In this document: positions 45,196 to 64,000 of the stretch, piece by piece
Layout of the letters: each line of letters opens with the position of its first letter
Numbering within the stretch: position 1 is the first letter of the stretch
NCBI GenBank assembly: GCA_965223325.1
Contig: CBDCWI010000001.1
Coordinates: forward strand, 2,080,091 to 2,144,090
DNA: 64,000 nt
Reading direction: 5' to 3'
Origin: Candidatus Multivoradales bacterium
GTDB taxonomy: Bacteria; Acidobacteriota; Thermoanaerobaculia; Multivoradales; Multivoraceae
Program-made: the position numbers and the translations under genes
The notes under the pieces: generated by a model
Told to the model about the DNA's origin: nothing
Databases searched by the model: none
The model's input: only the letters and a program-made list of their open reading frames with translations

Positions 45196-46582
45196 CGCGC
45201 GGCGATGCCGCGCACGGTCGGGGGTAAGTTTTGACGGCAACGCTGGACTGGACGAAGCGCCGAGCCTTCGCGCGCTCCATCGCCCTCTTCTCCGACCTCG
45301 AGGGGCGGTGACGAAGGCAGAAACCTCGCCTTCGCCACTCCTGAACGTCGGTACTCCGCCCGACAAACGGAGCTCCGCCAACACACCGATCGGTGCGTCC
45401 CCCTCAACCTCTTCGCCGGTGGCCTGGGCCGTCAGGGACCGTCGCGTGCACCCGGCCCAGGCACTTCCAGGGCCACAAACGGCAGCGGGCTTGGGAAAGT
45501 TCCGGGGGGAAACCGCGCCTCCAGGTCACCACCCCACAGAAGATCGCGCGCCGCACGATGCGCTCGCCTCACCGCATCAAGAACCGAAAGCAGCCGATTG
45601 CGCTCGTACGAGTCCGATGCGATGACCCGAGGCCTCGGCCCCCAATCGAGCTTCCTCGGACGGCGCATCGGACTCACCTGTGTCGTCTTGTAGGCACCGC
45701 GAGGCCTAGTCCCCTCTCGTTTGTGGCGCGCCCGCGTCTTGTCCTCGATCGCAACAATCATCCCGCGGGCCCAGTCGAAGTACTCCTCGTCAGGGAGGTC
45801 CTCGAAGCACGGAAGCTTCGATAAAACGACCGTCTCGCGGCTCGAGAAGTCCTTTTCGCTCAAACGACGACCGGCTTTCGAGAAACGGGCACGACGAAGC
45901 GCTGAACGATCGACCCAGGTGCCCTCGAGCTCGAAGGTCCCTGACCACAACGCCTCCCCTACCGACACGCCTGGCCACTTGCGAGGTGAAGACACCAACC
46001 CCGCCTTGCAACCCTGGGCAAGGATGTAGCGGAAACGACGGCAGAGGTCCTTCTTCGCGTGACCGGGAAACGACGTCTTGTACGGCCCTTCCCATTTCGG
46101 ACCCTTCCACCCGCGCAGGATCCGTAGTTCCACACTCGTCTGGTGCTGAATGCGCCGCATGAAATCGGCCAGCTGCTGGGCATCGCGAGCGCCCAGCAAA
46201 AGGTGAGCATGATTGACCTGGTAGTCCAGGGCGTAGATCCGGATTTCGGTCTTTCGCTGCGCGCGACCGATGATCCCGATCAGCAGTTCGCGTAGATGTG
46301 ACGATGGCGCCAACAGGAAGAACCCGTTGACGATGCGCACCGTCACTTCGACGACTCCCCAACCGCTCGAGTCGGTGGGGACATACCTCAGTTGATGGGC
46401 CATGACTCTTCGCACGGAACCATCGATGCCTTGCAGGGAGCCGAATCTTAGCGGATGACCCTCGCCATCGACCAACTGTCATTTGTGAATCGGGCTACAC
46501 GTCAGGTCGGTGGCGAGTCCCGGCCCTGCGCCACAACTTCGACTCAAAACTTACCCCCGACTGTGCGCGGCATCGCCGCGCG
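45196..46582 (-). mobile_element. Family A HUH/Y1 element, copy A1, 39-bp TIRs
   Basis: TIRs 45196-45234 and 46544-46582 (1 mismatch), each with hairpin GCGCGGC-N3-GCCGCGC. Confidence 0.9.
45432..46403 (-). CDS. HUH/Y1 (IS200-fold, RAYT-like) transposase, family A
   Basis: VNHAHLLL (HUH), FRYILAQGCKAGLV..P..WPG.S (catalytic Tyr helix), FPPGTF tail. Confidence 0.85.
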   Translation of the reverse strand: MAHQLRYVPTDSSGWGVVEVTVRIVNGFFLLAPSSHLRELLIGIIGRAQRKTEIRIYALDYQVNHAHLLLGARDAQQLADFMRRIQHQTSVELRILRGWKGPKWEGPYKTSFPGHAKKDLCRRFRYILAQGCKAGLVSSPRKWPGVSVGEALWSGTFELEGTWVDRSALRRARFSKAGRRLSEKDFSSRETVVLSKLPCFEDLPDEEYFDWARGMIVAIEDKTRARHKREGTRPRGAYKTTQVSPMRRPRKLDWGPRPRVIASDSYERNRLLSVLDAVRRAHRAARDLLWGGDLEARFPPGTFPSPLPFVALEVPGPGARDGP

Positions 46583-47047: not shown

Positions 47048-48381
47048 CGGGTGCCTTCGGTTCATTACTGCTCCTTCCTGCACTTCTGGTTGGCGTACAG
47101 AACCGGCTGGAGGTCAGGGTCGTCGCGTCTAGCTCCACGCCGCGGCCCGGAGACTCCGCCACTTTGTTCGTGGGTCGACAACAACCGCAAGTTGAAGAAG
47201 GCACCGTCGTTTTTCGAGCACTTAGAAACGGCCCGGCGCCCTTCCCTCAAGGCCTCTACGCGTGGAAGCGTGGGGGACTCACTACGGTACTTGATGAGAA
47301 CACCACCCTTCCAGGTGGCGGAACGGTCAAGCGCGTGGGCTTTGACTTTCTCATCTCGAATGGCACGATCGTCGCAACGGTCGATGATGATGCCGACCTG
47401 CGCCGGCTGGTCACCTGGACCAGCGGCACTATCGAGGTGCTCCTTCGACAAGAGGACGTCTCCCAAGAAACAGGAGAGCCCTTCGGACGTTTCACTACCG
47501 CCGCGGCGAGCCCGCCAATTGTTGCGATCGTCGACGACGCGAGCACAACGCTCTCCCTCCTCGGCCAGGGAAACGTCACTACTGTTGCCGGTCCCACTAC
47601 CCCGGTGCCAGAGAGTTTTTCAGTGGGCTTCGCTGGAATCCTCGAGGCGGCCATGAACGAGGCGCAGCTGGTATTCGCGGCCGCGACTCTAGACGGCCCA
47701 GGCACAGGACCGGACGGCCTCTACCGCTACTCGAGCGGTGCACTGACGCGCATCGTGGACAGGTCCACCGGAGGACCAGTACCCGCCTCCACACTCAGCG
47801 ACTTCTCCAACGTCGTTGTGTACCGGCAAGAGGTCGCTTTCACGGCATCATGGAACACTCCGCTCGGAACCCAGCAGGGCGTCTTCCGGGTCGCAGAATC
47901 CGACGGAGAACCCGTCCTCTGGCTCGCTGCCGAAGATGAAATCGAAGGAGTAGCCGGCAAGGTCACCAGCATTCGAAACGTAGGCTTCTTCGAGGGGAAC
48001 CTGGTCGCCGACGTCCTCACCGACCAAGGCGAAAGGGGGCTCACACTCACCACAGCTCCCGGCGCGTCGTGCCCGCTACTCCTACCGTTCTTCGAAGAGG
48101 GCTTCATTGCTGAAGGCGGACCAGAGGAGCCAAGCTGGACGTCTGACGGAAGCACAATCGCCTTCTGGCTCCGCCGCCTGCTCCCGGATGAAGGAGGACT
48201 AGTTGGCGCCCAAGGTATCTGGACCGCGCAACGCAGCACGCACGAGATACCCGCGTTAAGCCCACTCTCGCTCGGACTTCTCGTCACACTTCTCGCTGCC
48301 AGCGCACTCCGAGCACTGAAAGGTAGCAGACGTGAGTTTCGCCAGCGCAACGGCCGGTACTGCAGACGGCCTGATCGGTGA
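47026..48381 (+). CDS. Secreted beta-rich repeat protein with IPTL-CTERM-like sorting signal
   Basis: C-terminal EIPALSPLSLGLLVTLLAASALRALK plus basic tail; hydrophobic leader. Confidence 0.7.
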   Translation: MVINRAIAGAFGSLLLLPALLVGVQNRLEVRVVASSSTPRPGDSATLFVGRQQPQVEEGTVVFRALRNGPAPFPQGLYAWKRGGLTTVLDENTTLPGGGTVKRVGFDFLISNGTIVATVDDDADLRRLVTWTSGTIEVLLRQEDVSQETGEPFGRFTTAAASPPIVAIVDDASTTLSLLGQGNVTTVAGPTTPVPESFSVGFAGILEAAMNEAQLVFAAATLDGPGTGPDGLYRYSSGALTRIVDRSTGGPVPASTLSDFSNVVVYRQEVAFTASWNTPLGTQQGVFRVAESDGEPVLWLAAEDEIEGVAGKVTSIRNVGFFEGNLVADVLTDQGERGLTLTTAPGASCPLLLPFFEEGFIAEGGPEEPSWTSDGSTIAFWLRRLLPDEGGLVGAQGIWTAQRSTHEIPALSPLSLGLLVTLLAASALRALKGSRREFRQRNGRYCRRPDR

Positions 48382-48494
48382 GAGGTGGTGCTGCGGCGAC
48401 GGCCGAGAACACACAACAAGGTAGCAGAAAGCGATCACGTGTACCGGGTAGTTCGGGCAACGCCCGAGGCTTCGCCTCGGAGACGTTCTCGGAG

Positions 48495-49994
48495 ACGTTC
48501 CAGGCAACTATGTTTCATAGCCATGCGAGGTTCACGCGCATGCCGGAATTCACGACTCGGATCCCTGAGCGAAGTCCGCGGCCATACTGAACATGCGCAA
48601 GCAGATCCGCACCAAACACCTCCTCAACGCGGCTCGACCACACCTCAAACCACCGTCCAAGCCAGTCCAAGCCGCTGCGCGGTTGACTGCGCCATAGCTC
48701 GCGCCGCGATCTCGTGATCGCCGTCCCCAAAAGACGCAACACTGAAGTCCTTCTATCCAGGAGCGCGAGCCGCGTGCGGAACGAACGCGCCACGCGGCGG
48801 GAAGCAACCTCGCGGGAACGCGACGTTCTCTTCACCCGAACGCAACCTACGCGCCGCCCTCCTGTACGCCACAACAAAATGCCAGCGGTTGACGATGAAC
48901 GCGACGCGCTGTTCCCGGGTGTGGGCGTGGCAGGCCGGGGCGGGGCTGCGCTTCGAATGGCGCGGAGCGGCGTGAGGGTCCTGGGCGAGGATCTTCTCGC
49001 CCATGCTCCGCCCGCCTTCGAGATCGAGGCGTTGGCCTGTCTCTTCCTCGATGTCTTCGATCATCGAGACGAGCATCTTGCGGTAGGTTTCGGCGCTCAG
49101 GTCGGCAAAGTGCGGCAGGGGCTCGAGAGTGAGCTCCTCGAGCGTCTCGAACTCGGTGATGTCGATCTTGCGATTCGCCTCACGACGCTCGCTCCGGCTC
49201 AGCTGTTTGGATCGCGGGCCGATCACTCCTCGGCGGACGCGCTCGTGGTACAAGCCGGTGCGATCTAGCCAGACGCCGGAGAGCCTCATCGAACCGTCGG
49301 CAAGAGCGCGAGCACTCGTCACACCAGGCCAGTCAAGCGGCGAATCAATCAGCCCTTCTTTGCAGCCCTGCGCCAAGACGTAGCGAAGGCGCTGGTACGC
49401 CGCTTGCGGCTCGTCGGTGAGTTCGATGCCCTGGTAGCGGCGACACCAGAACCGCTCGCGCCAGCGCTGCAACCGGCCAACCCGTCTCGCGATGTTTCCG
49501 TTGGTGAAACCCATGAAGCGCGAGATGTGCCATTGCGATGCGGCGGACAGCAAGAGATGGCAGTGGTTTGAGCCGAACCAGAAGGCGTGGACGCTCACTC
49601 CGTAGAGCCGCTGCGCACGAGCGAGGACGGCGATGATCTCGTTGTTGACTTCTTTGCTCGGCCGCAGGAGGAAACGCGACTGGAGGCAGCGCGTGGTGAC
49701 TTCGACGACGCGGTTGGGCGTGTAGATCCTGGGTTTGGCGAAACGCATGGGGAGGAAGCTGCCGTTGTTTGGCGAACTGGTTGTCGTACCTCCCGAGAAT
49801 CTGCGCTCTTGTTACGGCCCCCACCTTAGAGTGCCGTTGCTCCAAGCGGCTCGCGGCGCGTCGCGTGGCAGCACTACGCCGGTGGCACGCCGCTGGAGGC
49901 AAGGTGGCTCACTTTCCTGATGGCCGCTGACGCTCGTGAATCTCGGCAGGCGCGTGAACCTCGCATGGCTGTGAAACATGGTTGCCTGGAACGT
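48495..49994 (-). mobile_element. Family B HUH/Y1 element, copy B1, TIRs of about 60 bp
   Basis: acgttccaggcaactatgtttcatagccatgcgaggttcacgcgcatgccgg... matches the reverse complement of about 49934-49994; hairpin CCGAGGC-TTC-GCCTCGG at 48464-48480 lies just outside. Confidence 0.88.
48753..49748 (-). CDS. HUH/Y1 (RAYT-like) transposase, family B
   Basis: EVTTRC.Q.RFLLRP, SNHCHLLL, LRYVLAQGCKEGL...P.DWPGV, FP.GCFPP. Confidence 0.85.
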   Translation of the reverse strand: MRFAKPRIYTPNRVVEVTTRCLQSRFLLRPSKEVNNEIIAVLARAQRLYGVSVHAFWFGSNHCHLLLSAASQWHISRFMGFTNGNIARRVGRLQRWRERFWCRRYQGIELTDEPQAAYQRLRYVLAQGCKEGLIDSPLDWPGVTSARALADGSMRLSGVWLDRTGLYHERVRRGVIGPRSKQLSRSERREANRKIDITEFETLEELTLEPLPHFADLSAETYRKMLVSMIEDIEEETGQRLDLEGGRSMGEKILAQDPHAAPRHSKRSPAPACHAHTREQRVAFIVNRWHFVVAYRRAARRLRSGEENVAFPRGCFPPRGAFVPHAARAPG

Positions 49995-50045
49995 AGCCCG
50001 CCGCCGCCGTAGCCCGCCGCCGCCGCCGCCGGTCCCGAAGGGTCG

Positions 50046-50535
50046 GTGACGGTCCACGACCATCGCGAGCGGCGTTGGCGTCACCTGGACACCTGCCAGT
50101 TCCAGACGATCCTTGTCGCTCGGGTTCCTCGAGTGCGGTGCAAGGAGCACGGAGTGAAGACGATCCATGTGCCCTGGTCCGATCCGGGTTCGGGGTTCAC
50201 GGCTCTGTTCGAAGCGCTGGTGATCGACTGGCTCCAGGCTGCGAACACGTCGGCCGTGTCCAGACTTCTCGGCTTGACGTGGGACGAAGTCGACGGGATC
50301 AAGCAGCGAGCGGTGGCCCGTGGTCTGGCCCGCAGGGAACTCACGGTGCCCGAAGACATCGGTGTCGACGAGACGTCTTTCCAGAAGCGTCACGAGTACG
50401 TGACGGTGGTCGCAGACACGCGGGCGAACGTGATCCACTGGGTGAGCGACGGCCGTGGGAAGGAGTCCCTGTCTTCGCACTTCGAGTGCTTCGAAGTGGC
50501 TGACCTGCAACAGGTTCGCAGCATCACGATGGGGT
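50046..50535 (+). pseudogene. Internal fragment of ISL3 family transposase
   Basis: HD.R.R.WRHLDTCQF.T...ARVPRV.C.EHGV....VPW, FT.LFE, IGVDETSFQKRHEYVT. Confidence 0.9.
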
Positions 50536-50687
50536 TCTTTCATCGATCACGGAGGGAATCGGCTGCCCGAACTACCCGGTACACGCGCGCCACATTGAGC
50601 AACAATCGCCGAGACCGGACTTCGACCGGGTACAGTGAGTACCATCCTCATATAGTGCCTAGTTCTTAGACCACGGGAGGTCGCTTC

Positions 50688-52556
50688 TTGTCCAACCATT
50701 TCTCTCGATTCAATCCACACTCGCGTCTACCCTGGCTCGCATCGGTTGCTGCCTCTGCCGTGCTTCTTGGCTCCTCGAATCTCCTGGCACCGACGCCCGC
50801 GTTTTCCAGCGCGCAAGAAGTCTCTTCGTCGGAAGATGTCGAGCTGTTCGCGCTCGAGATCCCTTTGTCGTACTCGAGTCCCACGGCCCTGGTGTCCTCG
50901 GAAGGGAAGTTGCTGCGCGAACCCGATCTGTCCAACGTACGCGTCCTCGGTGACTTCATTCGGGCACACAGCCTCACCGCGGACTCGAGGGCCGGGTTGC
51001 TCGACCGAACCGGCCAGAAGTGGGTCGTCGAGCCTGTCTTCAAGTCCATTCGTGACTTCAGCGCAGATGGACTCGCACGCGTCCAGGACGAGAACGACAG
51101 ATGGGGGTTCATCAATCGCACGGGCCAGACGGTGATCGATGCGAGGTACCCAGAGGCTCTGCCCTTCTCCCAAGGTCTGGCGGCGGTCCGAACTCGCCGC
51201 GGGTGGTCCTTCATTTCGACCGACGGCGAGGTTCGAATTCGAGGCCCATTTGTCGCAGCTCGCTCCTTCTCGGAAAACGGCCTGGCGGCTGTAGCAGACG
51301 CGGCGGGTCAGTGGGGGTTCATCAACCGCAGCGGAGACTTCGTTTTGTCCCCGCGTTTCGCGATGGCGTCCTCTTTCGGAACCGGGGGGCTGGCCCCGAT
51401 ATCTCTCGATGGGGAGAGCTACGGCCTGGTCACTGAGGCCGGCGAGTGGAGGGTCGAGCCTCGGTTCGACTCGATTGGCGCATTCAACAACGATGGCTGG
51501 GCCGCCTTTTCTGGCCCTGACGGGCAGGGCTTCTTCGATCCAGAGGGGCGGCAGGCATTCGTCGAAAAGACGGTGTTTGGCAACCGCACCGGCTGTGATC
51601 GGTTCTATTCGATCTACGAGCCGCACAGTTTTCGCGATGCCAGCGGCAAGATCGTTGCTGAGGTCGACTGGGCAACCCCGTTCATCGATGAGTGCATCGC
51701 CGTGGCGCACCAGGACGGAAGATTCGGCCTTCTCCGCCAAGACGGAACCCTGCTTCCTTTTGCCCACGAACTCGACGAGCCGATGACCGACCCCTGCTGC
51801 AGTCCGGAGGAACCTCTGTCGTTCCTCGGAACCAAGGGGCTCCTGCCGGTCTTCGCCCACGACGGTGTGATCGACTACTACGACGCCGAAGGCAAGGTTC
51901 GCTTCGAAATCCGCTGGCGAAATGACGACAAAGGGACCTCGCGCGCGGAGCTAGTGAATCAGGCAGGCCAGGTCATCTGGAAGGACCGGGCCAAGCAACC
52001 GAAGTTCACGCAGCCAGGTCGCTACAGCGATTTCACCGCGAAGGCCGTAGTGTCGGACCAGAGCGCGCTGACCGGCCTCGCGCCAACCGTCGCAGAGATG
52101 ATCAAGCAGCGCCCGAAGAAGATGGTGCTCGCGAACTGGCGCGACGACCCCTTCGAGTTCGACGAGTACGACTGGGACGATTCGCCAGAGCTGCGGGGCT
52201 CGTTTCGGACTCTGGTCTTCGCCGAGGGTGAGAGCGGGGCTTCCGTGGCGAACGTGTTGAAACTCAGAAGTCTAGCCACCGTGGCACCTCTGTTCGAGCG
52301 GCTGAAGGCCGAGCTGGGCGAGCTCCTCGGCTCGCCAGAAGTGCTTGGAGCGGAAGGTTTCTCCGAAGACGGGGGCGACATCATCTGGGATGACGTCTGG
52401 AAAGCGGCCGAAACTGGGAAGCTGGTCTGCCTCGGCGAAGACTTCGAACAGCTCACGTGGGTCAAGGACGGCAAGAGAGTCGTGCTCTGTGGGTCCTTCC
52501 ACGACGACCATCTCTACTTCCAGCGAGTGATCTGGCTGGCTGTGATCACAGACTGA
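50688..52556 (+). CDS. Secreted WG-repeat protein
   Basis: Repeated 'FS.GLA.V....WGFINR.G..VI.P.F' units; signal peptide. Confidence 0.85.
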   Translation: MSNHFSRFNPHSRLPWLASVAASAVLLGSSNLLAPTPAFSSAQEVSSSEDVELFALEIPLSYSSPTALVSSEGKLLREPDLSNVRVLGDFIRAHSLTADSRAGLLDRTGQKWVVEPVFKSIRDFSADGLARVQDENDRWGFINRTGQTVIDARYPEALPFSQGLAAVRTRRGWSFISTDGEVRIRGPFVAARSFSENGLAAVADAAGQWGFINRSGDFVLSPRFAMASSFGTGGLAPISLDGESYGLVTEAGEWRVEPRFDSIGAFNNDGWAAFSGPDGQGFFDPEGRQAFVEKTVFGNRTGCDRFYSIYEPHSFRDASGKIVAEVDWATPFIDECIAVAHQDGRFGLLRQDGTLLPFAHELDEPMTDPCCSPEEPLSFLGTKGLLPVFAHDGVIDYYDAEGKVRFEIRWRNDDKGTSRAELVNQAGQVIWKDRAKQPKFTQPGRYSDFTAKAVVSDQSALTGLAPTVAEMIKQRPKKMVLANWRDDPFEFDEYDWDDSPELRGSFRTLVFAEGESGASVANVLKLRSLATVAPLFERLKAELGELLGSPEVLGAEGFSEDGGDIIWDDVWKAAETGKLVCLGEDFEQLTWVKDGKRVVLCGSFHDDHLYFQRVIWLAVITD

Positions 52557-52665
52557 CCGACTCAAGTCAAGACCAGCCGGCTGCCATACAGTCGCGGGGC
52601 AAAGGGGTTCCGTTGGTGAAACCCATGAAGCGCCCCGCCGAGGCTTCGCCTCGGAGACGTTCCAG

Positions 52666-52948
52666 ATGAAATGAGTCGGTCGGCCTCCCAGGCAGCTGAC
52701 AAAGTAGTCAGCTCGGTAACAGTCACGGAAGGAGACCGACCATGAGTTACTTTGGCATCGACGTCCATCTGAAGACCAGTGCGATCTGTGAGATCTCCGA
52801 AGAGGGCGCGGTCGTAGAGCGCTGCGAGATTCCCACGACGCAAGAGCGCATGCGGCGCTTCTTCGCCGATCGCACATGCAGAGGCATTGCTCTGGAGGCA
52901 TGCGCGCAGAGCCCGTGGCTGAACCGACTCTTGAGCGACCTGGGGGGG
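52666..52948 (+). mobile_element. IS110 family element, left end and 5' part of transposase (CDS from 52742), truncated by A2
   Basis: MSYFGIDVH...IALEAC.QS.W (DEDD RuvC-like N-terminus); RBS aaggag. Confidence 0.85.
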
Positions 52949-54343
52949 GCGCGGCGATGCCGCGCACGGTCGGGGGTAAGTTTTCATGGCAACGCCAGAC
53001 AAGGCGACGCACCGCGTTTCCGAAGCATTCCATCGTCCTCTTTCACCGCCTCGATGGGTGTCGCGAGGGCAGAGACCTCGCCTTCGCCACCCCTGAAACC
53101 TCGGCACTCCACCCGACAGACGCAGCTCCGCCACCACACCTGCCGGTGCGTCCCCCTCAACCTCGTCAACCTCTTCGTCGGCGGCCTGGACTCAGGGACC
53201 GTCGCGTGCACCCGGCCCAGCCACTTCCAGGGCCACAAACGGCAGCGGGCTTGGAAAAGTGCCGGGCGGGAACTTCGCCTCCAGGTCACCACTCCACAGA
53301 AGATCGCGCGCCGCGCGATGCGCTCGCCTCACTGCATCGAAAACCGAAAGCAGCCGATTGCGCTCGAACGAGTCCGACGCGATGACCCGAGGCCTCGGCC
53401 CCCAATCGAGCTTCCTCGGACGGCGCATCGGACTCACCTGCGTTGTCTTGTAGGCGCCGCGAGGCCTCGTTCCCTCCCGTTTGTGGCGCACCCGGGTCTC
53501 GTCCTCGATCTCAACAATCATCCCGCGGGCCCAGTCGAAGTACTCCTCGTCAGGGAGGTCCTCGAAGCACGGAAGCTTCGATAAAACGACTGTCTCGCGG
53601 CTCGAGAAGTCCTTTTCGCTCAAACGACGCCCCGCTTTCGAGAAACGGGCACGACGCAGCGCTGAACGATCGACCCAGGTGCCCTCGAGCTCGAAGGTCC
53701 CTGACCACAGCGCCTCCCCCACCGACACGCCTGGCCACTTGCGCGGTGAAGACACCAACCCCGCCTTGCAGCCCTGGGCAAGGATGTAGCGGAAACGACG
53801 GCAGAGGTCCTTCTTCGCGTGACCGGGAAACGACGTCTTGTACGGCCCTTCCCATTTCGGACCCTTGAACCCGCGCAGGATCCGTAGTTCCACACTCGTC
53901 TGGTGCTGAATGCGCCGCATGAAGTCGGCCAGCTGCTGGGCGTCGCGAGCGCTCAGCAATAGATGCGCGTGATTGACCTGGTAGTCCAGGGCGTGAATCC
54001 GGATCTCGGTCTTTCGCTGCGCGCGGCCGATGATCCCGATCAGCAGTTCGCGTAGGCGTGACGATGGCGCCAACAGGAAGAACCCGTTGACGATGCGCAC
54101 CGTCACTTCGACGACTCCCCAACCGCTTCCGTCGGTGGGGACATACCTCAGTTGATGGGCCATGACTCATCGCACGGAACCATCGATGCCTTGCAGGGAG
54201 CCGAATCCTAGCGGATGACCCTCGCCATCGACCAACTGTCATCTTGTGAATCGGGCTACACGTTGGGCCGGTGGCGAGTCCCGGTCCTGCGCCACGACTT
54301 CGACTCAAAACTTACCCCCGACTGGGCGCGGCATCGCCGCGCG
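52949..54343 (-). mobile_element. Family A element, copy A2
   Basis: TIR with hairpin at both ends (from 52949 and 54305-54343). Confidence 0.9.
53192..54163 (-). CDS. HUH/Y1 transposase, family A
   Basis: Near-identical to 45432-46403. Confidence 0.85.
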   Translation of the reverse strand: MAHQLRYVPTDGSGWGVVEVTVRIVNGFFLLAPSSRLRELLIGIIGRAQRKTEIRIHALDYQVNHAHLLLSARDAQQLADFMRRIQHQTSVELRILRGFKGPKWEGPYKTSFPGHAKKDLCRRFRYILAQGCKAGLVSSPRKWPGVSVGEALWSGTFELEGTWVDRSALRRARFSKAGRRLSEKDFSSRETVVLSKLPCFEDLPDEEYFDWARGMIVEIEDETRVRHKREGTRPRGAYKTTQVSPMRRPRKLDWGPRPRVIASDSFERNRLLSVFDAVRRAHRAARDLLWSGDLEAKFPPGTFPSPLPFVALEVAGPGARDGP

Positions 54344-54406
54344 ATCAGCGACGGCACGGTAGGCTTTCCCCTTTGGGACGACCCAGAACCGCCGGCTGTG
54401 AGCTAA

Positions 54407-54895
54407 CTACTGTGGCGGCCATCCTCCTCCACCACCACCACCGCCGCCGGGTGGCGCTTCACAAGGGCAAACGCAGTTTCCGTTTTTGGAGGACGCAGGG
54501 ATCTCGGTTCCACTAAAAACACCCTTGGTCTTGAAGGACAGACCGCCAACTCCGCCACCACAGGTACCGTTCTTTCTCAACAGGGCTTCTACCTTGAAAG
54601 GAGTCGGCTGGTAGGGGAGGATTATCCACGTCTTATCGTCCTGGCCGAGGTTGTTCACATTGAGAATACAAGCGTTGTAATAGCCGTATCCTATCGCCGT
54701 GGCCTGGATAACGTCGAGCCAATCCAATTCCGTAATCTGAGTCACATTCACCCACGCCGTAAAGTCGACGGTCATGCTGAAGTTGTTGCCGATGGCCGTC
54801 GTCGCTACGTGTGTTGAATAGGTCAGCGCCTGGCTGGGGGTGCCGGCAATTGCCAGCAGCATTGCTACAAGGAGGCATCCTCTCGTCAACATCAT
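54407..54895 (-). CDS. Small secreted protein with Cys-rich and poly-Gly C-terminus
   Basis: Signal peptide; ends GNCVCPCEAPPGGGGGGGGGWPPQ; lower GC. Confidence 0.6.
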   Translation of the reverse strand: MMLTRGCLLVAMLLAIAGTPSQALTYSTHVATTAIGNNFSMTVDFTAWVNVTQITELDWLDVIQATAIGYGYYNACILNVNNLGQDDKTWIILPYQPTPFKVEALLRKNGTCGGGVGGLSFKTKGVFSGTEIPASSKNGNCVCPCEAPPGGGGGGGGGWPPQ

Positions 54896-55497
54896 CGGTT
54901 TCCTCTGTCAGTGGTGTCAAAGTCCTCTTGCATTCCGTCTCTGAAAGTATCAAAGAGGTCCAACAGGTCGGGATCAAACGACTCGTCGGTCGTGTGCAAA
55001 GCAACGCCCTCGCAGATTCTTCCGCCCGGGAACTCTGCCTTCATTAGAGCTCTTGACTCGTCATCGAGACCTCGATAAAGCGATGCTACGAGTCGTCGAA
55101 CGGCAGCGGCATCCCGCCTGGATCCCTCAAGGCTGTAGGAACGAAGGGCTTGTTCAGGGATAGTCGCGGCCCTCGCAGGGTCGCTCAGCCCCAAAGCCTC
55201 GTAGCGGTTCCTCATATGAGCAGCCAGCCCATTCCGATGAGACTCGTAGTCTGCTTGCCGCGCAGACAAGCGATCCCTTTCGGCCTGGTCGAGATCGAGA
55301 ATCTCGCGCAGTGTCTGAACGTCCGGAGTCTGGAGGAGGTGCTGTGCGCACGTGTAGGCGGGAAGATTGCTTCCTTTGAGGGTGAGGCGCACTTCCTGTT
55401 GGGTAACGCCTTGTGCGCTAGCTAACCCGGTGGTTAGCACGGCCAATGCTATGAAAACGAAGCCGATTCGAAACAGCGCCGATTGTTCGACAATCAT
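54892..55497 (-). CDS. Secreted helical hypothetical protein
   Basis: Signal peptide (..GLASA); 4-bp overlap with the downstream gene. Confidence 0.6.
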   Translation of the reverse strand: MIVEQSALFRIGFVFIALAVLTTGLASAQGVTQQEVRLTLKGSNLPAYTCAQHLLQTPDVQTLREILDLDQAERDRLSARQADYESHRNGLAAHMRNRYEALGLSDPARAATIPEQALRSYSLEGSRRDAAAVRRLVASLYRGLDDESRALMKAEFPGGRICEGVALHTTDESFDPDLLDLFDTFRDGMQEDFDTTDRGNR

Positions 55498-55647
55498 CTG
55501 ATCGCCCCCTTATGGTTGTTCGACATTGGGTTAGCCGACCATATACGGCGGCGAAATCGGCTGTCAAACGCGAATTCAGGAATAGCGTGTACCGAGTGTG
55601 CGGGAATAGCGTGTACCTCCCCGAGGCTTCGCCTCGAGACGTTCCAG

Positions 55648-55693
55648 ATGAAATGAGTCGGTCGGCCTCCCAGGCAGCTGACAAAGTAGTCAG
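55648..55693 (+). mobile_element. Second IS110 left-end fragment
   Basis: Same as 52666-52711 (atgaaatgagtcggtcggcctcccaggcagctgacaaagtagtcag), with the same upstream hairpin context. Confidence 0.8.
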
Positions 55694-55725
55694 TTCGCGC
55701 GGCGATGCCGCGCACGGTAGGGGAT

Positions 55726-57110
55726 CGCGCGGCGATGCCGCGCACGGTCGGGGGTAAGTTTTGACGGCAACGCTGGACTGGACGAAGCGCCGAGCCTTCG
55801 CGCGCTCCATCGCCCTCTTCTCCGACCTCGAAGGGCGGTGACGAAGGCAGAAACCTCGCCGTCGCCACTCCTGAACGTCGGTACTCCGCCCGACAAACGG
55901 AGCTCCGCCAACACACCGATCGGTGCGTCCCCCTCAACCTCTTCGTCGGCGGCCTGGACTCAGGGACCGTCGCGTGCGCCCGGCCCAGCCACTTCCAGGG
56001 CCACAAACGGCAGCGGGCTTGGAAAAGTGCCAGGCGGAAACTTCGCCTCCGGGTCACCACCCCACAGAAGATCCCGCGCCGCGCGGTGCGCTCGCCTCAC
56101 CGCATCAAAAACCGAAAGCAGGCGATTGCGTTCGTACGAATCCGACGCGATCACCCGAGGCCGCGGCCCCCAATCGAGCTTCCGCGGGCGGCGCATCGGA
56201 CTCACCTGCGTCGTCTTGTAGGCACCGCGAGGCCTCGTGCCCTTTCGCTTGTGGCGCACCCGGGTCTCGTCCTCGATCTCTACAATCATGCCGCGGGCCC
56301 AGTCGAAGTACTCCTCGTCCGGGAGGTCCTCGAAGCACGGAAGCTTCGATAAGACGACCGTCTCGCGGCTCGAGAAGTCCTTTTCGCTCAAACGACGCCC
56401 CGCTTTCGAGAAACGAGCACGTCGAAGCGCGGAGCGGTCGACCCACGTGCCCTCGAGCTCGAAGGTCCCTGACCACAGCGCCTCCCCCACCGACACGCCT
56501 GGCCACTTGCGCGGTGAAGACACCAACCCCGCCTTGCAACCCTGGGCAAGGATGTAGCGGAAACGACGGCAGAGGTCCTTCTTCGCGTGACCGGGAAACG
56601 ACGTCTTGTACGGCCCTTCCCATTTCGGACCCTTCCACCCGCGCAGGATCCGTAGTTCCACACTCGTCTGGTGCTGAATGCGCCGCATGAAGTCGGCCAG
56701 CTGTTGGGCGTCGCGAGCGCCCAGCAGAAGGTGAGCATGATTGACCTGGTAGTCCAGGGCGTGAATCCGGATCTCGGTCTTTCGCTGCGCGCGGCCGATG
56801 ATCCCGATCAGCAGGTCGCGTAGGTGTGACGATGGCGCCAACAGGAAGAACCCGTTGACGATTCGAACCGTCACTTCGACAACTCCCCAACCGCTCGAGT
56901 CGGTGGGGACGTATCTCAGTTGATGGGCCATGACTCTTCGCCCGGAGCCATCGATGTCCTGCAGGGAGCCGAATCTTAGCGGATGACCCTCGCCATCGAC
57001 CAACTGTCATTTGTGAATCGGGCTACACGTCCGGTCGGTGGCGAGGCGTCGCACTGCGCCACAACTTCGGCTCAAAACTTACCCCCGACCGGGGGCGGCA
57101 TCGCCGCCCG
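55726..57110 (-). mobile_element. Family A element, copy A3 (extra terminal hairpin unit at 55696-55723)
   Basis: TIRs present; right hairpin is GGGCGGC-ATC-GCCGCCC. Confidence 0.9.
55960..56931 (-). CDS. HUH/Y1 transposase, family A
   Basis: As A1 and A2. Confidence 0.85.
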   Translation of the reverse strand: MAHQLRYVPTDSSGWGVVEVTVRIVNGFFLLAPSSHLRDLLIGIIGRAQRKTEIRIHALDYQVNHAHLLLGARDAQQLADFMRRIQHQTSVELRILRGWKGPKWEGPYKTSFPGHAKKDLCRRFRYILAQGCKAGLVSSPRKWPGVSVGEALWSGTFELEGTWVDRSALRRARFSKAGRRLSEKDFSSRETVVLSKLPCFEDLPDEEYFDWARGMIVEIEDETRVRHKRKGTRPRGAYKTTQVSPMRRPRKLDWGPRPRVIASDSYERNRLLSVFDAVRRAHRAARDLLWGGDPEAKFPPGTFPSPLPFVALEVAGPGARDGP

Positions 57111-57270
57111 CCTCCTTGACGACGATCGTCTCTTGCCAGCCTCGTCGCTCGAGGAACTCGCGCAGCTGGTGCAGCTGCATGGCGATGGTGTGCTGATGCG
57201 GGGTAGAAACCCGCGCATACAGACCGACCCGAGGCGAGGCCTCGGGTCGGCTGGGGGAGGGGTGGCCAAA
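57111..57270 (-). pseudogene. N-terminal fragment of serine recombinase (resolvase), truncated by A3
   Basis: RVGLYARVSTPHQ.TI.MQL.QLREF.ERRGW motif with catalytic Ser. Confidence 0.8.
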
Positions 57271-57377
57271 AACCCCCTCGTCAGACGGCGATTTCAGGCC
57301 AGTGTTTCCGGGGGTCGAGGGAGGTCGGTTTCGGCATGGCCGAAACCTATACCTTTTGGCCATTCGCGGGTCGTAGA

Positions 57378-58022
57378 TCACATGAGTCTACGTAGCCCTA
57401 GAGCAGCAAGGACGAGCACGAGCAGGGACAGTGTCAGTGGCTGGAGGGTTGGGATAGGGGCTGAGGTTGGTGTTGGGCCCGTGATGATGACGTTGTCGAA
57501 GAGGCACTCGCCGGGAGACCCACCCGTCTGGGCTAGCAACACGCGATATGCCTTCTTGCCCAATTGGGGGGGCAGACTGACGCTGATGCGAGCCCAGCCA
57601 TCATTACCGTTGTCCTCGAAAGAAGCCGTCTCTCCATCAGTACATCCCACTTCGTCGTACGTGAAGATCGCGACGGCGCACCGGCCGAACTCTGATAACC
57701 GCCGAGTATCTGCATCGACACGCAGAGGACTCTCATCAGTAGAAGCGCAGGGAGTCCGGCCTGCGATGCGAGCAGATCCGAAACCGCTTCCCTCTCGAGA
57801 CACCCTGAGGGCTCCGCCCGGGTTGCCCGAAGCAGAGAAGCCGATGGAGCCGGTTACGTTCTCAGAGAGAGTCTCTACTTCAAGTTCCCACAGCGCGACA
57901 TCTTGGGGCTCGTCGAACTCGAATCTGACCTCGGCAGCTGCGGCGCTGATGCAGCCGGTCAGCAGGACCACGGCTAGGACGAGGCAGGGGATGTATCTAG
58001 GGAACAGTTGAGGACCACTCAT
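57378..58022 (-). CDS. Secreted protein with IPTL-CTERM sorting signal
   Basis: Signal peptide from ATG 58022; ends APIPTLQPLTLSLLVLVLAALGLRRLM*. Confidence 0.8.
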   Translation of the reverse strand: MSGPQLFPRYIPCLVLAVVLLTGCISAAAAEVRFEFDEPQDVALWELEVETLSENVTGSIGFSASGNPGGALRVSREGSGFGSARIAGRTPCASTDESPLRVDADTRRLSEFGRCAVAIFTYDEVGCTDGETASFEDNGNDGWARISVSLPPQLGKKAYRVLLAQTGGSPGECLFDNVIITGPTPTSAPIPTLQPLTLSLLVLVLAALGLRRLM

Positions 58023-59937
58023 TGGTATCGCCCGTTTCGAAGCCGTCCACCCAGACATAGCCGTCGGCAACATATACCGCTGCCCCAGCGTCGACCAGAC
58101 CGCATTCGGGCTCGGGTTCTGGCGGAGATTCCTGGGCCCAGTTAGGAAGCTTCCGCGACGTGGCACACATGATGATCTCAACCTGGGACGGACTGAGGGA
58201 GCCCTCCGTTGCCAACACCAGAGCTGCCGTTCCGGCCACGAATGGCGCAGCGAAAGAAGTGCCGAACGCTCCCCTTGTGTAGTTCCCGTCGTACAGCTGC
58301 GTGTCCGAGCATGTGGTCTCCCCTCCGGGGAGGGTATTGACCGCGCCGTCGCGACAGTCAGGATCTGTCGTCAGAAGACCTTTCCCCGGGGCGGCGAAGA
58401 GCACCCTAAAGCCGGGCGCTGGTGATGTGTTCCAGTTGCTTCCATTCGAGGCGTCGTCGCGCTAGCGAGCTCCTGTTATGTCGATGGCCCCAACGGCATT
58501 GACGCTCTCCAGGTTCGCAGGAAACGTTGGCTCGGGAAAGTTGTTGTTTCCAGCCGAAGCGAACGCGATGACTCCGGCATCACGGATCTGGTTGTAGGCG
58601 AGTTCGATGGCGTTTCCTGTGAAGAGTTGCCAGCTGTGCACGGTGACCTGTGCTCCGCCCATGCCGCCAGACCAGGTGATCGCGCTCGCTACTTCGTCAG
58701 CATCTTGATTGGCTTGCCAGCCGCACGACACGGTTGTGCCTGGCCCCGGATCCTCCAGCCAGTCGATCCAGTGAGCTCGTGCCGCCACGACCGAACCTTC
58801 AGGAACTACGCCGATACCACCGATCTGTGCGCCGGAATCAGTGTTGTTCATCATCCCAACCATCCCCGCGACGTGGGTTCCGTGCCACTCACAGTTGACG
58901 GGATCATCATCTGGATCGGGAAGCCACTTGTCTGCATCGTGCCGATGGTGGCCTGTCCCTGTGGCGGTGCCGCCTTCGCCCGCGAAGTTCTTTCCGGCCA
59001 GCGCCTGAAGATCTGGATGCTCAAGGTCGATGCCGTTGTCGATGACGGCTACCCTGACGAGAGGGTTGTTCGAGGCATCGCCACCGGCGCAGAGGTCCCA
59101 CGGGCGCGCTCGCCCCCCGCGGCCGGGACGACGCCCCCGGTGGATCTCAACTTCCCTCAGGACGTCAGCGAACTGCCGCTCTTCGCCTTGGTTTCTCTCT
59201 AGCTTCGGTGCGAATCGCGCTCTTCCAGATGGTCCAGCTCCCACTAGACGCGAAGACTCGAGGTACAGAACCGGGGAGTTCTGGTTGACCCAAGTGTCTT
59301 CCAGGAAAAGGAGCATCTGATCACCCTTCTTCGGTGGCGCCTGCCAGTGCTCGTCTACAACGCACAGGCTTCGGCTTCGCATCTTGATGCGCCCGGCCGG
59401 CACGAACACATAAACTGCTTCGCGCGGTGCAAGCTCTCCGTTCCGAACTTTGATGTCCTCGAGCTCAAGTAAGGTCCCAGCTTCTTGAAACAGGAATCCA
59501 CCTTTGCTTCTTGAGACGCGGGCATGGACGACGATTTGTGTCTCCGCGATCACGTCGTCCAAGCGTTCGTGGCTTTCCGGGGGTTTCGTTCGATCAAGGT
59601 GGGTTCTTAAGCTCGGACAGCCACTGTCCGACGAGGTCGCCTGTCTGAAATATCCCTCAACACTGGACTGAGTCGCGTCGCTGGCTCCCACCAACGTAAC
59701 TTCCCCATTGGGCCCCTCGAGGATCCGGTCTTCGGAGAAGAAGATCGGATCGTTGCCGTACACCGCTTCAAAGAAAACGAGATCGGGAAACGGCGACGCT
59801 TCGTCAGTCGCGACGGCCCCGGCGGCGTGCATGACGGCGGCGGTCACGATAACCGCAACCAGATACTTGAACGGTAGATACGACTTCTGGCGGTCGTGGT
59901 CTCTCAAGGGCACTCCTCCTTCATGTTGAGGGAACAA
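57997..59937 (-). pseudogene. S8 subtilase with DGFETG tail, split by one in-frame TAG
   Basis: VAVIDNG, HGTHVAG, SAGN before the TAG at 58462-58464; AAPG, GTSFAAP and VDGFETGDTNEWSSTVP* continue in the same frame. Confidence 0.85.
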
Positions 59938-60142
59938 ACTCTGGGGCCGTGAACGCAGACCCTTAGGGCTGTTGTGGTTCTACCCTGCCGGTATGAGTCA
60001 CTCGATCTGTTGATGGCAAGGGGTCCCGGCTGAAGGAGGGGCCAGTCGGGATGATCCGCGGGATGAATAGCGTGCCACGTGGCAGCCGCTGTGTCCAGAA
60101 GCGGTTAGAGGGCGATCGGCCCCCAACCCATCGGAGACCCGA

Positions 60143-61635
60143 GACGCTCCAGGCACCCATGTTTCATAGCCATGTGAGTTTCACGCGCATGCCGAGATTC
60201 ACGAGTCGGATCCCGGAGCCAAGTCCGCGGCCCCTACTGAACATGCGCAAGCAGATCCGCACCAAACACCTCCTCAACGCGGCGCGACCACGCCTCAAAC
60301 CACCGTCCAAGCCGGTCCAAGCCGCGGCGCGGTTGACTGCGCCATAGCTCGCGCAGCGATCTCGATCGCCGTCCCAAAAGACGCAACACTGAAGTCCTTC
60401 TATCCAGGAGCGCGAGCCGCGTGCGGAACGAACGCACCGCGCGGCGGGAAGCAACCTGGCGGGAACGCGACGTTCTCCTCACCCGAACGCAACCTACGCG
60501 CCGCCCTCCGGTACGCCACAACAAAACGCCAGCGGTTGACGATGAACGCGACGCGTTGTTCCCGGGTGTGGGCGTGGCAGGCCGGGGCGGGGCTGCGCTT
60601 CGAATGGCGCGGAGCGGCGTGAGGGTCCTGGGCGAGGATCTTCTCGCGTCCCATGCTCCGCCCACCTTCGAGATCGAGGCGTTGGCCTGTCTCTTCCTCG
60701 ATGTCTTCGATCATCGAGACGAGCATCTTGCGGTAGGCCTCGGCGCTCAGCTTGGCAAAGTGCGGCAGGGGCTCGAGAGTGAGCTCCTCGACCGTCTTCG
60801 AACTCGGTGATGTCGATCTTGCGATTCGCCTCGCGACGCTCGCTCCGGCTCAGCTGTCTGGATCGCGGGCCGATCACTCCTCGGCGGACGCGCTCTTGGT
60901 ACAAGCCGGTGCGATCTAGCCAGACGCCCGAGAGCTTCCTCGAACCGTCGGCAAGAGCGCGAGCACTCGTCACACCGGGCCAGTCAAGCGGCGAATCAAT
61001 CAGCCCTTCTTTGCAGCCCTGCGCCAAGACGTAGCGCAGGCGCTGGTAGGCGGCCTGCGGCTCGTCGGTGAGTTCGATGCCCTGGTAACGGCGACACGAG
61101 AACCGCTCGCGCCAACGCTGCAACCGGCCCACGCGTCTCGCGATGTTTCCATTGGTGAAACCCATGAAGCGCGAGATGTGCCACTGCGATTCGGCGGACA
61201 GCAAGAGATGGCAGTGGTTTGAGCCGAACCAGAAGGCGTGGACGCTCACTCCGTAGAGCCGCTGCGCACGAGCCAGGACGGCGATGATCTCGTTGTTGAC
61301 TTCTTTGCTCGGCCGCAGGAGGAAACGCGACTGGAGGCAGCGCGTGGTGACTTCGACGACGCGGTTGGGCGTGTAGATCCTGGGCTTGGCGAAACGCATC
61401 GGGAGAAAGCTGCCGTTGTTTGGCGAACTGGTTGTCGTACCTCCCGAGAATCTGCGCTCTTGTTACGGCCCCCGCCTTCGAGGGCCGTTGTTCTAAGCGG
61501 CTCGCGGGGCGTCACGTGGCGTACTAACGCCGCTGGAGGCAAGGTGGCTCACTTTCCTGACGGCCGCTGACGCTCGTGAATCTCGGCAGGCGCGTGAACC
61601 TCGCATGGCTGAGAAACATAGGTGCCTGGAACGTC
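60143..61635 (-). mobile_element. Family B element, copy B2
   Basis: TIRs 60143 to about 60205 and about 61573 to 61635; colinear with B1. Confidence 0.88.
60400..61399 (-). pseudogene. Family B HUH/Y1 transposase, frameshifted
   Basis: Extra base at about 60797 (gtcttcgaac vs gtctcgaac in B1) splits the ORF. Confidence 0.85.
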
Positions 61636-61680
61636 GCCATGCCAGGCGAAGTCTCGGCGACGGCGATACGATGGGACACG

Positions 61681-62493: not shown

Positions 62494-62576
62494 ACACGAC
62501 AACCAGCTGCACTGGATGTGAACCCGCGCTCGCTTCGCTCGCTCGGGCTCGCACCAGTGAGCTTCGTCCGCTAGCG
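62494..62576 (+). other. Integron attC-like site (degenerate core sites)
   Basis: 83 bp, colinear with 43224-43306 with compensatory arm changes; R'' ACACGAC, R' GCTAGCG. Confidence 0.75.
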
Positions 62577-62664: not shown

Positions 62665-64000
62665 CGCGCGGCGATGCCGCGCACGGTCGGGGGTAAGTTT
62701 TGACGGCAACGCTGGACTGGACGAAGCGCCGAGCCTTCGCGCGCTCCATCGCCCTCTTCTCCGACCTCGAAGGGCGGTGACGAAGGCAGAAACCTCGCCG
62801 TCGCCACTCCTGAACGTCGGTACTCCGCCCGACAAACGGAGCTCCGCCAACACACCGATCGGTGCGTCCCCCTCAACCTCTTCGTCGGCGGCCTGGACTC
62901 AGGGACCGTCGCGTGCGCCCGGCCCAGCCACTTCCAGGGCCACAAACGGCAGCGGGCTTGGAAAAGTGCCAGGCGGAAACTTCGCCTCCGGGTCACCACC
63001 CCACAGAAGATCCCGCGCCGCGCGGTGCGCTCGCCTCACCGCATCAAAAACCGAAAGCAGGCGATTGCGTTCGTACGAATCCGACGCGATCACCCGAGGC
63101 CGCGGCCCCCAATCGAGCTTCCGCGGGCGGCGCATCGGACTCACCTGCGTCGTCTTGTAGGCACCGCGAGGCCTCGTGCCCTTTCGCTTGTGGCGCACCC
63201 GGGTCTCGTCCTCGATCTCTACAATCATGCCGCGGGCCCAGTCGAAGTACTCCTCGTCCGGGAGGTCCTCGAAGCACGGAAGCTTCGATAAGACGACCGT
63301 CTCGCGGCTCGAGAAGTCCTTTTCGCTCAAACGACGCCCCGCTTTCGAGAAACGAGCACGTCGAAGCGCGGAGCGGTCGACCCACGTGCCCTCGAGCTCG
63401 AAGGTCCCTGACCACAGCGCCTCCCCCACCGACACGCCTGGCCACTTGCGCGGTGAAGACACCAACCCCGCCTTGCAACCCTGGGCAAGGATGTAGCGGA
63501 AACGACGGCAGAGGTCCTTCTTCGCGTGACCGGGAAACGACGTCTTGTACGGCCCTTCCCATTTCGGACCCTTCCACCCGCGCAGGATCCGTAGTTCCAC
63601 ACTCGTCTGGTGCTGAATGCGCCGCATGAAGTCGGCCAGCTGTTGGGCGTCGCGAGCGCCCAGCAGAAGGTGAGCATGATTGACCTGGTAGTCCAGGGCG
63701 TGAATCCGGATCTCGGTCTTTCGCTGCGCGCGGCCGATGATCCCGATCAGCAGGTCGCGTAGGTGTGACGATGGCGCCAACAGGAAGAACCCGTTGACGA
63801 TTCGAACCGTCACTTCGACAACTCCCCAACCGCTCGAGTCGGTGGGGACGTATCTCAGTTGATGGGCCATGACTCTTCGCCCGGAGCCATCGATGTCCTG
63901 CAGGGAGCCGAATCTTAGCGGATGACCCTCGCCATCGACCAACTGTCATTTGTGAATCGGGCTACACGTCCGGTCGGTGGCGAGGCGTCGCACTGCGCCA
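62665..64000 (-). mobile_element. Family A element, copy A4 (second TIR beyond the window)
   Basis: Appears identical to A3 at a constant offset of 6939 bp. Confidence 0.9.
62899..63870 (-). CDS. HUH/Y1 transposase, family A
   Basis: Translation identical to the A3 ORF. Confidence 0.85.
   Translation of the reverse strand: MAHQLRYVPTDSSGWGVVEVTVRIVNGFFLLAPSSHLRDLLIGIIGRAQRKTEIRIHALDYQVNHAHLLLGARDAQQLADFMRRIQHQTSVELRILRGWKGPKWEGPYKTSFPGHAKKDLCRRFRYILAQGCKAGLVSSPRKWPGVSVGEALWSGTFELEGTWVDRSALRRARFSKAGRRLSEKDFSSRETVVLSKLPCFEDLPDEEYFDWARGMIVEIEDETRVRHKRKGTRPRGAYKTTQVSPMRRPRKLDWGPRPRVIASDSYERNRLLSVFDAVRRAHRAARDLLWGGDPEAKFPPGTFPSPLPFVALEVAGPGARDGP

Follow-up and report, generated by a model that had tools for sequence, protein, structure and literature searches.

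A probable insertion sequence of a RayT-like Y1 transposase clade with imperfect terminal inverted repeats in Candidatus Multivoradales

In a stretch of 64,000 nucleotides (nt) from contig CBDCWI010000001.1 of Candidatus Multivoradales (hereinafter, the window; all coordinates are positions within it), we analyzed a family of mobile elements, denoted family B, that is represented by two copies, B1 and B2, in which a transposase gene, or what is left of it, lies between two terminal inverted repeats (TIRs). Family B is an ordinary insertion sequence of an under-described family. According to the interpretation that we favor, and to which we assign a probability of roughly 70%, B1 is the intact copy and B2 is a copy that depends on transposase supplied in trans, both belong to a clade of RayT-like transposases of the Y1 type whose genes are enclosed by imperfect TIRs, in the layout for which the names TIRYT and TIRtron have been coined, and the ends of the element would be opened by nicks within the repeats. 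Taken separately, the assignment of B to the insertion sequences of a TIR-bearing Y1 clade is very probable.

The two copies occupy positions 48492-49998 (B1) and 60141-61638 (B2) and are 94.4% identical over 1512 aligned columns, in agreement with the original prediction of two elements of about 1.5 kb. In the coding region, the pairwise alignment shows a 3-bp insertion and a 1-bp insertion in B2 compared to B1; the B2 gene is a pseudogene because the 1-bp insertion splits the open reading frame (ORF) into pieces of 301 and 108 amino acids, so that the prediction of a 331-amino acid HUH protein in both elements is borne out for B1 and fails for B2. Thus, B1 is the intact and, probably, autonomous copy, and B2 is a frameshifted, decaying one that could move only if the transposase were supplied in trans. 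The TIRs, expected to be of about 60 bp, are 61 nt long in B1 and 63 nt long in B2 and are imperfect, with 92% and 89% complementarity between the arms, respectively (Table 1); a 30-nt internal pattern of these repeats was found only at the four B ends, with zero occurrences expected from shuffled sequences. An Rfam scan of positions 42000-64000 at E <= 1 detected no RNA within the untranslated parts of B; the sole match in this region is a chance microRNA match at 48104-48187, outside the element.

The B1 protein belongs to the Y1 HUH transposase superfamily. It matches the Pfam family Y1_Tnp (PF01797) with an E value of 3.5e-8 (34 bits against a cut-off of 23), and the two histidines of the HUH motif, H62 and H64, as well as the tyrosine Y123, are invariant in an alignment of 32 sequences. 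The profile derived from this alignment, when compared with solved structures, retrieved ISDra2 TnpA (1e-6) and Escherichia coli TnpA-REP (0.008), with the HUH motif and the tyrosine aligned. The tyrosine motif of the clade can be written as Y-[IV]-L-[AS]-[QHN]-G-x-K-E-G-L, with G128 invariant in the 32 sequences; B itself conforms to Y-x3-Q, and its characteristic motifs are NHCH, FWCRRY and YVLAQG. The best NCBIfam model for the B1 protein is the transposase associated with repetitive extragenic palindromic (REP) elements, namely, REP-associated tyrosine transposase (RAYT), at 36.7 bits, below the cut-off of 80, and the transpos_IS200 model scores 19 bits against a cut-off of 55. The protein of a second family of elements in the window, family A, shares 33% identity with the B1 protein (E 3e-43), and the alignment of the two confirms the motifs that had been quoted as common to both.

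The AlphaFold model of the B1 protein is of high quality (predicted local distance difference test, 91.5; predicted template modelling score, 0.88). For the N-terminal third of the model, the best fold match is 4er8, TnpA-REP with a REP hairpin (template modelling score 0.68 on the target), followed by the TnpA proteins of ISDra2 and IS608; the matches among solved structures include 2xm3 and 2vjv. Beyond the Y1/HUH core, which takes up approximately residues 1-130, lies a conserved domain of about 180 amino acids at the C-terminus (approximately residues 140-331; 48753-49330, minus strand) that is modelled with high confidence and consists of two beta-strand segments and long helices at residues 219-244 and 278-303. 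For this C-terminal part, neither a Pfam family nor a fold match in the PDB was found, and the B1 protein showed no match to helix-turn-helix (HTH) families of Pfam (Bac_DnaA_C, HTH_23, HTH_28) at E <= 0.1. In the ESM Atlas, the best matches to residues 140-331 are unnamed hypothetical proteins of about 200 amino acids (score 0.91, 166 shared features), which are probably fragments of the same family and serve as a lead only. Prediction of a homodimer of the B1 protein yielded a best score of 0.23 against a mark of 0.42, a value that speaks neither for nor against dimerisation.

The clade to which B1 belongs is large. Clustering at 50% identity left 3638 representatives with E <= 1e-3, of which 1734 also pass 1e-10 and 360 pass 1e-30. 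Among the 588 candidate stretches listed from species-representative genomes, 575 encode a relative, so that there are at least 575 such loci. One relative, from a related genome, has a protein 98% identical to that of B1. The named matches come mostly from Thermoanaerobaculia and other Acidobacteriota, with a few from Myxococcota or "delta-proteobacterial" metagenome-assembled genomes, and the proteins are RayT-like, single-tyrosine (Y1) HUH proteins of about 300-330 amino acids. For the analysis of DNA flanks, we used 80 homologous loci (L001-L080), mostly from Thermoanaerobaculia/Acidobacteriota, with the end statistics calculated on 85 ends. Several genomes carry 3-5 loci of the clade each, and within genomes there are 34 pairs of loci with at least 80% DNA identity (80-96%) over at least 900 nt; the homology blocks span approximately 950-1310 nt, and the longest of them (approximately 1230-1310 nt) end in a shared motif.

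These observations bear on the possibility that the Y1 gene is a domesticated, immobile host gene of the RAYT or TIRYT type that maintains dispersed TIR- or REP-like repeats. Many of the relatives are indeed named "REP element-mobilizing transposase RayT" in their sources, the best NCBIfam model points in the same direction, B-type tips without a gene are present in the window (see below), and published TIRYT genes are mostly low-copy (PMC6006769). However, the entire 1.5-kb unit is duplicated, with different flanks and with one copy decaying; family A is present in at least four copies, two of which are identical and one of which interrupts an IS110-like gene; the homology between the paired loci ends near the TIRs; and the NCBIfam score is far under its cut-off. 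Domestication is therefore highly improbable.

The TIRs are not a peculiarity of B. On the forward strand, the motif GGT[GT]CCA is concentrated 50-250 nt before the gene (about 61 matches in four 50-nt bins, against a background of 1-2 per bin). On the reverse strand, it accumulates past the other end of the gene, at a distance of 200-300 nt (49 matches in two bins). Among the 70 loci with enough flanking sequence, 42 have the left core, 40 have the right core, and 27 have both. The consensus of the 85 ends is (G)AA(G)A-GGTGCCA-(G/C)CCGATT, and the B ends read GAGA-CGTTCCA-GGCAAC, a likeness that is no more than suggestive. A strict ungapped scan of the homologue flanks first suggested that the homologues lack TIRs; this conclusion was overturned by the positional analysis of the motif, which revealed short conserved TIRs, with modest matches at constant positions and a conserved core. 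The generality of TIRs in the clade is thus supported. Long TIRs (arms of 36-63 nt, for example, 48495-48555 and 45193-45234) are seen in two distantly related families of one genome.

Insertion does not seem to be accompanied by target duplication: in 27 loci, the longest word shared by the left and right flanks has a mean length of 4.30, and combining flanks from mismatched loci gives 4.49; there are no flanking direct repeats at B1, B2 or the family A copies. A DDE transposon with a captured Y1 passenger gene was also considered and rejected, given that there is no second family-matching ORF in the 1.5 kb, that the distance between core and gene is fixed, and that target duplication is absent.

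The original prediction emphasized that the two ends of each B element co-vary, and inferred that they are homogenised or must pair. Indeed, both ends of B1 carry CAGGCAAC, and those of B2 carry CAGGCACC. When the four ends are aligned from outside to inside over the 62-nt repeat, there are 11 variable positions, of which seven are singletons, two differ by side, one differs by element and one is distributed crosswise (B1-left = B2-right, B1-right = B2-left). The two by-side positions (left versus right) represent an ancestral asymmetry. The sole by-element position is the one in CAGGCA[A/C]C, and the crosswise position is located two bases from it; because each of these patterns needs two independent changes, one by-element against one crosswise position is the chance level. 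The two ends of an element do not resemble each other more than equivalent ends of the two copies do: out of 62 positions, B1-left and B1-right differ at 6 and B2-left and B2-right at 7, compared to 8 differences between the two left ends and only 3 between the two right ends.

A larger sample of elements leads to the same conclusion. In 28 homologous elements, the left and right ends of an element are more alike than ends of different elements: they carry the same base at 330 of the 700 positions compared outside the anchor, and 1000 shuffles gave 270 on average and never more than 307. Such an excess is expected for any element with TIRs and cannot be read as a probability because the loci are related. 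At the position singled out in the prediction (+11 from the core start), the ends agree in 14 of 28 elements, with 12.4 expected. A count of by-element against crosswise positions in 14 homologue pairs (about 15 versus about 18) was not used, many of the ends being mis-anchored and most columns non-homologous. Hence the A/C pattern itself is real and amounts to one base of 11, agreement at this position does not exceed the shuffled level in the homologous elements, and homogenisation or obligatory pairing of the ends is not upheld.

Single-strand panhandle pairing has been proposed for REPIN doublets, and an analogous explanation can be envisaged for B, such that the TIRs of one element pair in a single-strand panhandle or are homogenised by conversion, with substitutions matched as a consequence. 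The A/C base, which differs between the copies and agrees within each, the considerable length of the B TIRs, and a compensatory pair change in one terminal hairpin of family A are all in line with this scenario, as is the fact that the Y1 enzymes of IS608 and ISDra2, whose DNA complexes are among the fold matches, act on folded single strands. Nevertheless, with a single by-element position out of 11, a crosswise site two bases away, closer similarity between the right ends than within either element, and near-chance agreement at the equivalent position of the homologues, we consider this explanation quite unlikely. The simplest account of the A/C base common to both ends is that the change occurred in parallel at a TIR site of moderate conservation. 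In practical terms, the outcome is negative, and "co-varying ends" should not serve as evidence of pairing or homogenisation.

A second structural feature that had been predicted, a hairpin beside the B1 end with the same geometry as in family A, was found as well: CCGAGGC-TTC-GCCTCGG at 48464-48480, with a 7-bp stem and a 3-nt loop. The B1 left region folds better than all 200 shuffled sequences (z -3.26), and no better folding than in shuffles was seen at the other three B ends (z from -0.67 to +3.4). The similarity between B1 and B2 stops four bases inside the 3' arm of the hairpin, there is no counterpart of the hairpin at B1-right and B2-left, and no run of T that would fit the idea of an intrinsic terminator of the upstream gene follows the hairpin at B1. 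Among the homologue ends, hairpins with stems of at least 6 bp and loops of 3-6 nt are not enriched: they occur at 5 of 85 ends just beyond the core and at 4 just within it, compared to 5 of the 85 when a window at a distance of 300 nt served as the control. Of the TIR-plus-hairpin design that had been supposed to be general to the clade, the TIRs accordingly stand, with the core GGT[GT]CCA flanking the genes, and the hairpin does not, nor is it an obligatory part of the B ends.

The hairpin is not confined to B1. Because two orphan B-type tips, at 52638 and 55621, accompany the one beside B1, a unit that consists of the hairpin and a B-type tip occurs three times in the window. At both orphan sites, the hairpin precedes AGACGTTCCAG, which is the tip of the B TIR, and the left end of an IS110-like element follows ...CCAG; these sites form a 78-bp repeat with 97% identity (52638-52715 and 55621-55697) that runs from the hairpin through the B-type tip, as far as CCAG, into the IS110-like left end. 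It appears that B1 either landed in such a unit or still carries it, with B2 having lost it. An IS110-like N-terminal ORF starts at 52742 and is cut by a family A element at 52949 (the IS110 match is below the Pfam cut-off). Possibly, the tips of B-type TIRs serve as targets for the IS110-like element, just as some members of the IS110/IS1111 group target transposon ends.

The distribution of the hairpin invites another explanation, under which it is a recognition structure in the style of IS200/IS605 or REP/RAYT, and a full B end consists of the hairpin, AG and ACGTTCCAGG..., with losses at B2 and at B1-right. Consistent with this possibility, the hairpin followed by AGACGTTC appears three times in 64 kb, at 48464, 52638 and 55621; a relic matching 14 of 17 bases, in the corresponding orientation, lies 6 nt from the right TIR of B2; all nine end copies of family A start with a 7-bp/3-nt hairpin followed by ACGGTC; and in the solved structure that the model resembles most, the transposase is in complex with a REP hairpin. 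On the other hand, the homology of B1 and B2 ends within the hairpin, two of the ends are without a counterpart, three of the four B ends fold no better than shuffles, and the homologue ends are not enriched in hairpins. In addition, the orphan copies may reflect one event rather than two because the 78 bp that they share include the IS110-like end. On balance, a recognition role of the hairpin is unlikely.

The ends of the clade members exhibit a different regularity. Outside many of the TIR cores, the outermost 10-17 nt of the repeat recur 1-4 times in tandem. When the search unit combined six flank bases and the first five core bases, an extra tip copy was found up to 60 nt outside at 28 of 85 ends (23 of 59 loci); the same search directed into the element gave 1 of 85, and a unit picked 300 nt away gave 2 of 85. 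Because this search forces the repeat to reach the core, the scan was repeated without the core condition (period 9-25, exact run of at least 9), and a tandem repeat near the tip was detected at 36 of 85 ends, whereas three control windows yielded 2, 3 and 5. On the inner side, the repeat most often stops at +5, after GGTGC, as it does at 7 ends. Among the homologues, such stuttered tips can be seen at the left ends of L004 and L015 and at the right ends of L022, L056 and L074. At B1, the tip carries two TCGGAGACGTTC units with CAGGCAAC directly after them, and the similarity of B1 and B2 extends about 14 nt past the TIR on the left side because B2 keeps a degenerate form of this stutter. The left end of copy 3 of family A similarly repeats the first approximately 30 nt of the A tip (55697-55725). 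The boundary of the stutter five bases into the core may be the footprint of a cleavage site.

Based on these features, a mechanism can be proposed for the transposition of B. The enlarged transposase would recognize and bind the conserved block of each TIR, and each end would be nicked symmetrically, about five bases into the core, GGTGC^CA in the clade and CGTTC^CA in B. In this reaction, metal binding would fall to the HUH histidines, and the 5' phosphate would be transferred to Y123 in a 5'-phosphotyrosine link; the substrate might be single-stranded, as in IS608, or duplex. The short tandem tip copies would then be by-products of the nick, for which two routes can be envisaged. The 3' end released by the nick could re-anneal further back, through TGC(C)-type microhomology, and then be resealed, or a sibling copy could insert where a resident copy is nicked, followed by recombination between them. 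We regard the placement of the nick five bases into the core as tentative and somewhat doubtful. Also rather doubtful is the boldest version of the proposal, in which an undescribed insertion-sequence family, with a Y1 HUH transposase and a fold-novel domain of about 180 amino acids, would nick inside two symmetric TIRs (GGTGC^CA), unlike the one-strand peel-and-paste of IS200/IS605, and the 10-17 nt stutter would be the footprint of the nick. If this were true, the cleavage site would be readable from genome sequence alone.

Several observations weigh against this view of B as an element of the clade that is nicked within its repeats. The tandem boundaries are ambiguous by a few bases, and only 18 of the 36 fall within +4 to +8. 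The duplication across the right junction of B1 may be due to plain slippage because it ends at +2 to +3 in a GCC repeat. The hairpin precedes three of the four B-type left tips in the window and, for this reason, could belong to a full-length B end, from which B2 lost it. The match of B to the family consensus is modest: once the anchoring positions are set aside, the scores of the four ends fall within the top 0.2%, 2.0%, 2.6% and 7.1% of the window positions. In the strict ungapped scan, only 4 of 71 loci reached an inverted repeat score of at least 18, and many members seem to have short or degenerate TIRs, given this count and the presence of both exact cores in only 27 of 70 loci; under the same scoring, the TIRs of B reach 42-46 and those of A 30-36, against 24 at most for the homologues (71 loci). 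Finally, no transposition intermediate, empty site or cleavage product was seen, so that both the place of the nick and a symmetric chemistry at the two ends are purely inferred.

Table 1. Coordinates of the B elements, their repeats and the associated hairpins and tips in the window
Feature	Coordinates	Strand	Basis or remark
B1 element, TIR to TIR, intact	48495..49994	-	alignment, inverted-repeat search
B1 transposase gene, 331 amino acids; Y1/HUH core and C-terminal domain	48753..49748	-	ORF list
B1 left TIR arm (3' side of the gene)	48495..48555	.	inverted repeat
B1 right TIR arm (5' side of the gene)	49934..49994	.	inverted repeat
B2 element, decaying copy	60143..61635	-	alignment, inverted-repeat search
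B2 transposase pseudogene; ORFs 60494-61399 (301 amino acids) and 60400-60726 (108 amino acids)	60400..61399	-	
B2 left TIR arm	60143..60205	.	inverted repeat
B2 right TIR arm	61573..61635	.	inverted repeat
B1 tip stutter, 12-nt unit TCGGAGACGTTC, perfect tandem twice	48477..48500	+	boundary between CGTTC and CA, fifth base of the core
Degenerate counterpart of the stutter at B2, TCGGAGAC-CC-GAGACGCTC	60131..60149	+	
16-nt tandem duplication across the B1 right junction, GTAGCCCGCCGCCGCC twice, GCC-rich tract; includes 2-3 nt of the TIR	49993..50024	+	
Hairpin outside the B1 left TIR; last 4 nt overlap the first stutter unit; not in B2	48464..48480	+	
Hairpin relic, 14/17 bases, 6 nt outside the B2 right TIR, non-folding	61641..61657	-	
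Orphan B-type tip: same hairpin, then AGACGTTCCAG, then IS110-like left end	52638..52665	+	
Second orphan B-type tip: hairpin with one deletion, then AGACGTTCCAG, same IS110-like sequence	55621..55647	+	

The surroundings of B are a graveyard of mobile DNA. To the right of B1, there is a fragment of an ISL3 transposase (50046-50669; profile positions 23-185 of 370), and an N-terminal fragment of a serine resolvase (57079-57381), preceded by a palindrome with a 10-bp stem at about 57226-57248, abuts the right end of copy 3 of family A; both fragments look truncated by the neighbouring elements. Family A is represented in the window by four copies and a 325-nt left fragment at 42131-42454. Two of the copies (55726-57061 and 62665-64000) show 100% identity across 1336 nt, a sign that transposition or duplication took place very recently, and the other copies are 91-94% identical. 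The hairpin GCGCGGC-GAT-GCCGCGC forms the very tip of the A TIR at all nine end copies; at the right end of copy 3 (57093-57109), it reads GGGCGGC-GAT-GCCGCCC, with two paired substitutions and the stem kept, and this is a compensatory change within a single end. A 79-nt direct repeat with 82% identity (43226-43304 and 62496-62574) belongs to neither family A nor family B.

With IS200/IS605 elements, such as IS608 and ISDra2, family B shares the catalytic fold, in which the HUH motif and the single tyrosine are aligned, the Y-x3-Q arrangement and the lack of target duplication. IS200/IS605 elements lack TIRs and carry asymmetric, subterminal hairpins of a single strand at their ends, whereas B has TIRs of 61-63 nt and no conserved hairpins, and its 331-amino acid protein includes the extra domain of about 180 amino acids. 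The IS200/IS605 proteins, of approximately 130-155 amino acids, consist of the core only, according to the 2018 classification (Table 1 of PMC6006769). The relationship with RAYT/TnpA-REP is apparent in the best structural match (4er8), the best NCBIfam model and the inverted repeats that flank the gene. Nevertheless, at 36.7 bits B stays short of the NCBIfam cut-off of 80, it lacks the Y---NP motif of these proteins (class 2 of Quentin et al. 2018), with G128 where P is expected, and the flanking repeats are not GTAG-type palindromes. The whole B unit has two copies in the window, next to two orphan tips, and its relatives are multi-copy, a pattern that seems to differ from the single gene and hundreds of REPs in RAYT systems.

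The layout itself has been described previously. RayT-like genes with flanking TIRs were named TIRYTs, and the respective units TIRtrons, in 2013, with an Acidobacteria group being the most sharply defined and the TIRs being unrelated to REPs; solo copies of the TIRs may be dispersed in the genome (Di Nocera, De Gregorio and Rocco 2013, PMC3733652). The 2018 classification of TnpA-Y1 proteins assigns TIRYTs to subclasses 2.1, 2.2 and 2.5, with the motif Y---NP, and ascribes C-terminal HTH-type domains to subclass 2.1, the main TIRYT group (PMC6006769). B resembles these units in that a RayT-like Y1/HUH gene is flanked by TIRs other than REPs, clade-wide, with Acidobacteria prominent among the hosts; judging by the published descriptions, the clade is set apart by Y-x3-[Q/H/N]-G, the absence of an HTH match, multi-copy status and stuttered tips. 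The TIR motif of the main TIRYT group, GGGGWSAS, has 13 matches in the window, none of them inside the TIRs of B or A. Class 3 TnpA-Y1 proteins of Planctomycetes and Acidobacteria have NHVH, W[TA] and YV[VI][AENY]EQ and a median length of 178 amino acids (Quentin et al. 2018), whereas B has NHCH, FWCRRY and YVLAQG and 331 amino acids. As far as the published definitions go, none of the 12 subclasses combines NH-x-H, FW-x-RRY, Y-x3-[QHN]-G, a length of about 306-331 amino acids and a C-terminal domain without HTH.

Judging by title and the start of the abstract, none of the papers listed from 2014 on that deal with HUH proteins, Y1 transposases and TIRs describes such an element. Within the searched literature, there is no experimental follow-up of TIRYTs or TIRtrons, the former term being found only in the 2013 paper and the 2018 classification and the latter only in 2013. 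Given this comparison, the TIR-flanked design is known, and the protein clade, together with its multi-copy and stuttered-tip behaviour, appears to be undescribed. Y1 HUH transposases are the textbook case of single-strand transposition with asymmetric hairpin ends. Here, by contrast, a large mobile clade has symmetric TIRs, that is, the same catalytic core coupled with a different end architecture, and the conserved core and the stuttered tips provide concrete substrates and a predicted cut site for biochemistry.

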